From positions 1-64,000 of the IMG/VR virus record IMGVR_UViG_3300028394_000044: 64,000 bases of DNA. One strand, written 5' to 3'. Position 1 is the stretch's first letter. Each line of letters opens with the position of its first letter. Under the pieces are notes generated by a model that saw only the letters and a program-made list of their open reading frames with translations, ran no database searches and had not been told where the DNA came from. Origin of the DNA: a virus. Position numbers and translations under genes: made by a program. Below, in pieces: positions 63,092-64,000 of the stretch.

Positions 63092-63508
63092 ATGATTGAT
63101 ACAAATGATATTTTTCGTGGTGTAGGAGTTGAAATTCTACTGAATGAACAAGATGATTTCCTTAAAGTCCGAGAGACCCTAACTAGAATTGGTGTCTCCT
63201 CTAGCAAAGAAAAAATTCTATACCAATCTTGCCACATCTTACACAAGCAAGCTAGATACACAATATTACATTTTAAAGAATTGTTTGAGTTGGACGGAAA
63301 ACCATCCAATATTTCTGATAATGACATTGAAAGACGGAATGCAATTGCTAAACTTCTTGAAGAATGGGGTTTAGTGAAGATAATTAAACCAGAACTCATA
63401 GGTGAAAAAATAGCACCTATGCACCAGATTAAGATTATTTCATATCGTGAAAAAGATGGATGGCAGTTGGTAAGCAAATACAATATTGGAAAGAAACCTC
63501 AGGAATGA
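63092..63508 (+). CDS. regA: Translational repressor RegA
   Basis: DDFLKVRETLTRIG; LYQSCHILHK; HFKELF.LDG; RRNAIA.LL. Confidence 0.96.
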   Translation: MIDTNDIFRGVGVEILLNEQDDFLKVRETLTRIGVSSSKEKILYQSCHILHKQARYTILHFKELFELDGKPSNISDNDIERRNAIAKLLEEWGLVKIIKPELIGEKIAPMHQIKIISYREKDGWQLVSKYNIGKKPQE

Positions 63509-63514
63509 TATATT

Positions 63515-63700
63515 ATGAAAAAATTGAAAGAGAAAGTGACCAGACTAAAGAACATTTACACTGGTGAAATCGTTATAACTAGTAACTTGTTTGAGAAAAG
63601 AGTTGATAGTACCATGACATTCATTCAGGTATATACCGAGACCAATCCGCAAAGAAAATTCTTTGTTAACGGCGCGGCTTTTGTTCCGGCGACTAAATAA
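63515..63700 (+). CDS. Small hypothetical protein
   Basis: 61 aa with SD AGGA; LKNIYTGEIV motif. Confidence 0.55.
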   Translation: MKKLKEKVTRLKNIYTGEIVITSNLFEKRVDSTMTFIQVYTETNPQRKFFVNGAAFVPATK

Positions 63701-63703
63701 TAG

Positions 63704-63883
63704 TATCTCGGGGATGGGAACATGGCGATAGTAACCATGTAAATAACTATCACTAATTTAAGAACCCACCTTAGGGCTGTTTGATGCTACGGTAAAAGGC
63801 GTCCGGGCAATTGCACTGTCACCCGTTAGTTGTCCCTGTATTAAGTAAGCAGGACCCAGCTACGCTTTCGGGGTAGCTTTTTA
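63704..63883 (+). ncRNA. Candidate structured RNA (tandem pseudoknots) upstream of hsp20
   Basis: GC-rich 200-nt intergenic region with two H-type pseudoknots, further stems and a terminal hairpin plus T tract; ACTAAATA late-promoter variant at 63692-63699. Confidence 0.6.
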
Positions 63884-63906
63884 ACTTGCTTTTAAAGGAG
63901 AAATTT

Positions 63907-64000
63907 ATGACTAATCTAGGTCGTATTAATTTTGGACCATTGAGTCCAAGTACCGTTGGCTTTGAACGTTTTTTTGATGCGTTTGACCAACTCACCGCGG
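63907..64000 (+). CDS. hsp20: Small heat-shock protein Hsp20 (5' fragment only)
   Basis: SD AAGGAG; ..STVGFERFFDAF N-terminal IbpA-like motif; regA-hsp20 synteny in T4-like aquatic phages. Confidence 0.7.
   Translation, partial: MTNLGRINFGPLSPSTVGFERFFDAFDQLTA

Follow-up and report, generated by a model that had tools for sequence, protein, structure and literature searches.

Comparison with related phages indicates that the hsp20 gene of this T4-type phage is preceded by a real, conserved and modular RNA leader, bearing out a preliminary description of the region as a multi-domain, pseudoknot-rich and late-promoter-driven RNA upstream of hsp20. The 3′ end of the leader appears to be a new phage branch of a known type of regulator, the ROSE-like thermometers, and its 5′ two-thirds consist of new structured RNA motifs for which no described family was matched. 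We favour, with moderate confidence, the reading that the leader exerts ROSE-like translational control over hsp20, through temperature and/or feedback by Hsp20, and carries two accessory RNA modules.

The window, i.e. the whole stretch of 64,000 nt (64 kb) that was analysed, is the first part of a 162-kb virus record with terminal repeats. The genome is of the T4 type, and its gp44 has 61% identity to that of Methylophilales phage Melnitz (family Kyanoviridae). The locus is organised as follows:

63092-63508: regA (Pfam Translat_reg, E 7e-43)
63515-63700, + strand: 61-aa ORF, kept in 67 viral loci (49-97%)
63692-63699, + strand: ACTAAATA, a motif of T4-type late promoters that overlaps the 61-aa ORF at its stop codon; putative promoter
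63706-63719, + strand: P0, 5′-terminal hairpin UCUC/GGGA in the conserved GGGAUGGGA box of module A (63706-63751); pairing read by eye
63720-63751, + strand: H-type pseudoknot of module A, with stem S1 ACAUGG/CCAUGU, stem S2 GAUAGU/ACUAUC and an A-rich loop 3
63761-63855, + strand: module B, with two hairpins, an H-type pseudoknot X/Z and the H3 hairpin; 103 bits with model R1
63856-63909, + strand: 3′ module, with hairpins I and II
63907-64000, + strand: start of hsp20 (162 aa; Pfam HSP20, E 1e-15), which runs past the window end

The 61-aa ORF, which belongs to no family in a Pfam search, occupies the same position between regA and the leader in all 67 viral contigs. The spacer between the regA side and hsp20 (63701-63906, 206 nt) had been called the largest and GC-richest gap. 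It is the GC-richest (0.437 versus 0.367 for the window) and not strictly the longest, as stretches of 270 and 243 nt that lack a long ORF are present elsewhere in the window. All of the strings from which the preliminary description built its helices are present where it had placed them. Outside the window, the same genome carries 27 tRNA genes clustered at record positions 115614-121504 (aragorn) and, at 137516-137901 (+ strand; 217-602 of locus L324), a permuted two-piece tmRNA that scores 92.6 bits with tmRNA_permuted and 73.7 bits with alpha_tmRNA, and is uncalled by aragorn -m. This tmRNA has a sigma-70-like promoter (TTGACA-17-TATAAT) and the tag frame ANDSRFLMVA*; its alphaproteobacterial type hints at the host.

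By fold energy the region is ordinary. The minimum free energy (MFE) of positions 63692-63906 is -54.1 kcal/mol versus -52.4 ± 4.2 kcal/mol in shuffles (z -0.40), 66 of 200 shuffles fold as well as the + strand of the window, and the - strand (z +0.47) is also no better than shuffles. The case for the leader therefore rests on comparison with relatives. A search with the 61-aa ORF gathered 67 viral contigs in which a small ORF, a spacer and hsp20 follow one another. The spacers measure 100-266 nt and are mosaics of a few common modules, with module A only, module B only, or A followed by B. Comparing related regA-hsp20 spacers was a check that the preliminary description itself had named, and it revealed strong covariation in more than 100 related phage contigs: in 95 distinct homologues for module B, 66 for hairpin I and 42 for module A, covariation was far above that in shuffled and slid controls.

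The same description had been unable to place the RNA in an Rfam family, which holds for the 5′ 150 nt and fails for the 3′ 55 nt, related to the ROSE type. No Rfam 15 family matches modules A and B at the gathering score, either across the window or across 19 related loci; with E values up to 10, positions 63400-64000 gave only chance-level matches (E 6-10). Across 19, 11 and 8 related loci, Rfam returned tRNAs, ROSE_3 in Melnitz and S-CAM9, chance matches and nothing else. BLAST searches against 50,697 phage records, with the spacer and with two divergent copies of module B as queries, found the Shine-Dalgarno (SD) region only, and literature searches by topic and by sequence string found no description of modules A and B. 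PMC10690425 catalogues a large number of candidate phage RNAs; hsp20 and a motif of this kind go unmentioned in its text, and its tables could hold the modules unnamed.

A late promoter upstream of the RNA had been proposed from the ACTAAATA motif alone, and comparison strengthens the proposal. NTAAATA is kept at the end of the small ORF in 22 of 22 distinct relatives, as the variants TATAAATA, CATAAATA, ACTAAATA and GATAAATA. In one group of relatives the stop codon is read in the other register of the motif (GTA TAA ATA), which argues that NTAAATA is conserved for its own sake. Genome-wide, 18% of NATAAATA/NCTAAATA sites precede an SD, an ATG and an ORF, versus 2-5% for scrambled motifs; late motifs are followed by this arrangement 4-8 times more often than their scrambled versions. 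Late leaders of this genome usually measure 14-45 nt, which makes the length of the hsp20 leader, about 195 nt, exceptional.

Module A would open the transcript. The pyrimidine arm of P0 pairs with the second GGGA of the invariant GGGAUGGGA, and in about 35 distinct contigs the arm and the box lie 11-14 nt past TAAATA or 6-8 nt past TATAAT. In contigs where module A stands behind TATAAT instead of TAAATA, it does so at the matching distance, starting 4-7 nt past the predicted +1 with either promoter; under both promoter types the structured RNA is predicted to start at the 5′ end. The first pseudoknot of the preliminary description (ACAUGG/CCAUGU with GAUAGU/ACUAUC) is well founded: an H-type pseudoknot of at least 10 bp and of the same geometry (loop 1 of 0-1 nt, A-rich loop 3) is found in 29 of 42 promoter-linked instances, compared with 3.9% of dinucleotide shuffles, and is built from many different stem sequences. 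The stems vary freely, with ACAGG/CCUGU plus UGGCA/UGCCA in one copy and ACUAGC/GCUAGU plus UACCGGUG/CACCGGUG in another, and covariation is strong across the roughly 30 distinct copies of the module. A helix GGGGAUGGG/CCCACCUU had been drawn around this pseudoknot. It cannot be general, because one of its strands lies in module A and the other in module B, and in relatives each module is found without the other.

Module B, of which the window's genome has one copy, is the most widely sampled part of the leader. Searching with a pattern made from its two invariant segments yields 119 or more viral stretches, of which about 90% are real copies, and the covariance model R1 aligned 95 distinct copies. 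The covariation score of the module is 0.393, versus 0.111 in shuffles and at most 0.048 with the pairing partners slid. A pattern scan of 185,579 prokaryote genomes was swamped by chance matches, with no real module-B copy among the 120 matches listed. The helices of the module are, all on the + strand:

63765-67/63774-76: P1, 98% paired
63777-80/63789-92: P2, CUGU/ACGG, 95% paired, three of four pairs changed on both sides
63804-07/63822-25: helix X, CGGG/CCCG, 95% paired
63818-21/63831-34: helix Z, GUCA/UGUC, 4-5 bp, 99.3% paired, double changes at five of five pairs
63835-39/63849-53: H3 hairpin, CCUG/CAGG, loop AUUAAGUAA, 99.4% paired, double changes at five of five pairs

Three helices listed earlier for this part are thereby upheld: GCUGU/ACGGU in the form of P2, CCUG/CAGG as H3, and CGGG/CCCG as helix X, one position of which is UA (40), AU (20), CG (17) or GC (12), though X is absent from the model. 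Helices X and Z interleave and form the second H-type pseudoknot of the leader; the window copy of Z has one U-U mismatch. Covarying Z, knotted with X, takes the place of the GGGCAAUUG/UAGUUGUCC helix that had been proposed, and the competing GUCC/GGAC pairing drops out, as GGAC is not conserved. Other contacts are compatible with the alignment and lack compensatory change. GAUGCU/GGCGUC, the second stem of the second pseudoknot of the preliminary description, is 87% paired, with an invariant 3′ strand and one-sided changes only; GAUG could pair with CGUC, again through invariant bases; and CCUUA could pair with AAGG of the UAAGG tail (87-89% paired, invariant bases, no double changes). Two further pairings were rejected: kissing of CCUUA with the H3 loop, as UAAGG is present in only 27 of 92 copies and without compensation, and pairing of the 3′ strand of H3 with CUUGCUU, which is seen in the MFE fold and is not conserved in the GUAACC class.

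Amid these freely changing helices, some 30 positions of the ~95-nt module are invariant, or about 35 if near-invariant unpaired bases are counted. The invariant segments include CCUUAGG, AGGCGUCCG, AAUU..AC and the H3 loop AUAARGUAA, and the module has the conserved tail AAGGCGUCCG. A variant of the first domain occurs in four loci (L069, L091, L100, L122), where CCUUAGG pairs with CCUAAGG (7 bp) and a CCCCC/GGGGG helix is crossed by the pairing of the tail CGUCCG with a CGGACG farther away; the topology is unchanged, the second half is different and the H3 hairpin is absent.

Module B is not tied to hsp20. Among 92 distinct copies, the following gene is hsp20 in 53, a small phasin-like ORF in seven and a 134-aa protein in 11; others precede genes for an M23/LysM peptidase, a GNAT-like protein, a fatty-acid desaturase, a phosphoesterase or a DUF4422 protein. 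Several of the downstream products start with MKITELL, MRAKEF or MRYKEF, which we take to resemble the capsid-targeting sequence of T4 internal proteins; one product of this group is an M23 peptidase with LysM. In the contigs encoding them, the start codon lies 11-13 nt past module B, via a CTAAATAC motif. Two copies of the first domain of module B adjoin tRNA genes. Judged by its sequence contexts, module B is probably a portable, self-contained RNA domain, and because it precedes unrelated genes, the metabolite riboswitch that had been considered for this RNA is unlikely. The idea of type III antitoxin-like (ToxI) pseudoknot repeats is excluded. The hallmark of ToxI-like RNAs is tandem repeats of one pseudoknot unit by a toxin gene; here the modules differ in sequence and architecture and are no repeats of one unit, module B is single-copy, and the leader is flanked by regA, the 61-aa ORF and hsp20.

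Two other regularities were seen around module B. In L081, L087, L089, L090, L128, L134, L139 and others, the downstream gene starts 4-7 nt past the late-promoter-like CTAAATAC motif and has no SD, and the late mRNAs of these genes may be leaderless. A small conserved peptide ending in (D/E)YPVYPEDDGTDRPRNPYSP terminates at module B in L081, L128, L134 and L072, and starts after module B in L118.

The 3′ module, which follows module B, comprises, on the + strand:

63858-63878: hairpin I, AGCUAC[G]CU-UUCG-GGGUAGCU; the bulged G sits two pairs beneath the UUCG loop
63878-63882: U5, directly after hairpin I
63885-63900: hairpin II, anti-SD CUUGCU (63885-90) facing SD AGGAG (63896-900), with a bulged G; ROSE motif U(U/C)GCU

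Hairpin I, anticipated as GCUAC...GUAGC, is 92.8% paired in 66 sequences, with double changes at six of eight pairs; its bulged G and GCC/GGG core are invariant, and the same hairpin is present in the ROSE_3 consensus. The preliminary description had coupled this hairpin to a T5 run before the SD, a run that the marine relatives do not keep. In most freshwater copies, five to seven of the nine nucleotides after hairpin I are U, compared with none or one in P-TIM40 and S-RIM2; in the marine relatives hairpin I lies 6 nt past the promoter and is followed by a CACAA-rich linker with no U run. Because the linker is CACAA-rich in isolates, the U run of the window does not appear to be a conserved terminator feature, and a scan of the window with the intrinsic-terminator consensus found none. 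Of 66 leaders, 64 have the arrangement CU(C/U)GCU-N3-8-AGGAG-N4-9-AUG. In hairpin II neither strand varies, which leaves nothing for a covariation test; we infer that the two strands pair. Reading TTGCTT as a MotA box was rejected: most copies have CGCTT as the core, and transcription from such a promoter would begin within hsp20.

Of ten isolates examined, six have the 3′ module ahead of hsp20 (Melnitz, P-TIM40, P-SSM3, S-CAM9, S-RIM2 and S-SSM5). The module directly follows the late-promoter motif in all of these except S-CAM9, where an additional hairpin intervenes, and it stays with hsp20 also where the upstream gene differs or is on the opposite strand. In L057-L061 (e.g. L057, 1140-1352) a 71-aa phasin-like ORF lies between the ROSE-like module and hsp20; it took over the CUUGCU/AGGAG start region, leaving hsp20 with a plain SD.

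ROSE elements are known from small heat-shock genes of alpha- and gamma-proteobacteria, and a literature search found no report of ROSE-type elements in phages. The phage module has much in common with the ROSE_3/ibp leaders. Both belong to the 5′ UTR of a gene for a small heat-shock protein, and both have a hairpin I that is stable, rich in G+C and has its bulged G within the core AUGCC...GGGU. A single-stranded linker then leads to a hairpin II in which ACU(C/U)GCU pairs imperfectly, with a bulged G, with AGGAG, and the AUG is free. These features of ROSE-like thermometers are described in PMC3669281. The Melnitz leader can be aligned across the whole of Rfam ROSE_3 at 34.1 bits (E 5e-6 locally), below the cut-off of 43 bits, and the alignment reproduces both the bulged-G hairpin I and the hairpin II ACUcGCu...AGgAG; S-CAM9 scores 20 bits. 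In the window, ROSE_3 does not report the 3′ module at E values up to 10 or reach its gathering score of 43 bits, and among 11 freshwater loci searched up to E 3 it reports none. With model R2, for which 51 uncultured phage copies were the sole input, the isolates score 25-43 bits, and the 5′ UTR of E. coli ibpB is found as well (30.1 bits, E 1e-5). The ibpB leader has the cUUCGg loop hairpin, ACUCGCUU and AGGAGAAA..CUAUG in common with the phage module, and ibpA is matched partially, at the hairpin CUCGCUGAUUUCAGGAG; the anti-SD/SD segment of hairpin II aligns with both E. coli leaders. The link to ROSE is thus indirect, running from the phage copies through R2 to ibpB while the window copy itself escapes ROSE_3. 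R2 has a second, weak match in the genome (record positions 137866-137924, + strand, 20.1 bits), where a terminator-like hairpin GCAAGUUGA...UCAACUUGC with U6 contains AACUUGCUU; AGGAG and the beginning of a secreted-looking protein of 147 aa come next, and the resemblance is probably only partial.

Hairpin II differs from that of ROSE_3. It has only five pairs, 2 bp fewer than in Pseudomonas, and of the G-C clamp of the Pseudomonas type (PMC3669281) it has the lower C-G and lacks the upper part, with a U-A pair at the top and then a loop of 3-8 nt. Counting against a ROSE-like reading, its predicted stability is -0.3 kcal/mol at 37 °C, close to unfolded. Nearest-neighbour modelling, in a model without the non-canonical pairs of ROSE, gives constant SD accessibility of the 3′ module from 5 to 42 °C and no clear melting of the module taken by itself. 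The phage leader is also unlike bacterial ROSE elements in having a late promoter rather than a sigma-32 promoter, and unlike any of them in the roughly 150 nt of pseudoknotted modules in front. We use the wording ‘ROSE-like relative’ because ROSE_3 does not report the window copy and because hairpin II is shorter, lacks the clamp and is barely stable. Three hallmarks of ROSE-like thermometers, namely the position in the 5′ UTR of an Hsp20/IbpA gene, U(U/C)GCU facing the SD and a stable hairpin I, are present; the 3′ module appears to be a relative of ROSE elements while falling outside the family by the Rfam criterion. Its 55 nt are homologous to the E. coli ibpB leader and have the architecture of short ROSE-like thermometers, which favours the thermosensor component of the preliminary description. 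Rfam freshwater-2 RNA (RF02980), a cis-regulatory candidate from freshwater metagenomes, also ends in AAAGGAGAAAAcAAAUG behind hairpins; it aligns with the window at 13.8 bits and with Melnitz at 16.9 bits, mostly in the SD region and well below its gathering score of 49.9, and the leader is not a member.

The protein encoded downstream is consistent with feedback. In E. coli, IbpA binds the ROSE-type 5′ UTR of its own mRNA and thereby represses its translation; for this R93 is indispensable, positions R97/K98 must be basic and Y34 must be aromatic, with Y34F functional, and IbpB lacks R93 (PMC10474464). We aligned IbpA and IbpB from the MG1655 record with the Hsp20s of the window, Melnitz, P-TIM40 and L016. 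Window Hsp20 is 32% identical to IbpA. All four phage proteins have Arg in the R93 column; columns 97/98 are Lys-Lys in the window, Melnitz and L016 and Ala-Arg in P-TIM40; and the Y34 column holds Phe or Tyr, Phe in the window. The phages would thus resemble the IbpA system in placing an IbpA-like Hsp20, with equivalents of R93, 97/98 and Y34, behind a ROSE-type leader. Since the residues that IbpA needs to act on its own 5′ UTR are retained, feedback of the phage chaperone on its own leader is plausible by analogy.

In the reading that we favour, the spacer would be the ~195-nt 5′ leader of a late hsp20 mRNA, made of autonomous RNA modules. A stable hairpin I would be followed by the weak hairpin II, in which CUUGCU, with its bulged G, covers the SD AGGAG; the closed hairpin would hold hsp20 translation down, and release would come with warming, with Hsp20 leaving its own mRNA as for E. 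coli IbpA, or with both. Phage hosts live at much lower temperatures than the bacteria with ROSE systems, and thermosensing by the phage leader is proposed by analogy with these. Gene and leader were apparently acquired together from a proteobacterial ibp locus and placed under a late promoter, and in the freshwater lineage modules A and B would have been inserted between promoter and thermometer. They could act in cis as self-folding accessory domains, shielding the 5′ end, making the transcript more stable and insulating the sensor hairpin, which is weak; PMC3669281 discusses a role of this kind for ROSE hairpin I. A passive stabilising role of module B is strained, however, by its ~35 invariant unpaired bases, which exceed what such a role needs, by the unrelated genes that follow it and by its tRNA neighbours.

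Placing a pseudoknot at the mRNA 5′ end has a counterpart among T4-type phages. The leader of T4 gene 32 mRNA has an H-type pseudoknot at its 5′ end, ahead of an A/U-rich translation start region. The two leaders, which can be compared by description only as Rfam holds no model for the former, share a 5′-end H-type pseudoknot in the mRNA of a T4-type phage and differ in gene and in sequence; no cognate binding protein is evident for the hsp20 leader. The gene 32 pseudoknot is also cited in PMC10690425.

The degree to which module B is conserved leaves real room for a second reading, tentative and in our view less likely than not, in which module B, possibly together with module A, represents a new functional RNA class of aquatic T4-type phages with a specific biochemical activity. 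It would be a portable ~95-nt cassette, doubly pseudoknotted, ahead of highly expressed late genes, and it would do more than stabilise passively: it could cleave itself, or bind with high affinity a factor of host or phage, for instance a ribonuclease, a defence protein or a component of the ribosome.

An unlikely alternative has modules A and B, up to hairpin I and the U run, released as a ~175-nt trans-acting small RNA that binds or decoys a protein or nuclease of host or phage, with hsp20 expressed by read-through only. The five to seven U after hairpin I in most freshwater copies would suit it, as would the autonomy of module B ahead of unrelated genes, the very high conservation of loops and junctions, and the two contigs with the first domain inside tRNA clusters, where stable RNAs get processed out. 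This last setting recalls T4 rnaC and rnaD, which are likewise phage-encoded structured RNAs in a T4-type genome. They were rejected as relatives of module B: with filters off, the best R1 score is 8 bits, elsewhere in the locus, and no common motifs are seen by eye. Against a small RNA stand also the missing U run in marine relatives, with hairpin I there so close to the promoter, the downstream space, too small for a separate hsp20 promoter, and the frequent location of module B 11-13 nt before a start codon without a terminator.

Rather improbable, in our estimate, is that module B is a catalytic or ligand-binding RNA, i.e. a new class of self-cleaving ribozyme or riboswitch by which late transcripts are processed or gated. 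A pattern typical of such RNAs is seen in its nested and pseudoknotted fold, where about 35 unpaired nucleotides stay invariant amid freely covarying stems; the module is intergenic in phages, like many small ribozymes, and is absent from Rfam. It resembles no ribozyme model at E up to 10, however, the unrelated downstream genes (hsp20, those for capsid-targeted proteins, M23 peptidase, desaturase, phosphoesterase) speak against a metabolite switch, and no expression platform is recognisable where the module abuts the start codon.

We consider it very unlikely that the region forms a structure at the 3′ end of the regA/small-ORF transcript, as a terminator and exonuclease block, and plays no role in hsp20 expression. 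It does start just past a stop codon, as module B lies close behind stop codons in other contigs too, and the window has a hairpin followed by U5. Such a role would leave unexplained the promoter motif directly upstream, conserved independently of the reading frame, the TATAAT boxes at the same distance from module A in some relatives, the linkage of the 3′ module to hsp20 even behind another or an opposite-strand gene, and the conserved anti-SD/SD arrangement. Finally, that the helices are chance pairings in a GC-richer spacer, as the fold energies on both strands would allow, is already refuted by the covariation in 95, 66 and 42 distinct homologues.

The finding bears on aquatic phages beyond this genome. 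The same sensor module precedes hsp20 in cyanophages, in an OM43 phage and in many uncultured freshwater phages. If the reading of ROSE-like control is true, these phages read temperature or the protein-folding state of the host when making their chaperone, which bears on the long-standing question of what purpose the widespread cyanophage hsp20 serves. The pseudoknotted modules A and B, which recur in well over 100 uncultured aquatic phage contigs, are two undescribed RNA motifs with about 30 and 95 distinct copies, respectively, and the conservation pattern of module B is of the kind that earlier led to new ribozymes and riboswitches.
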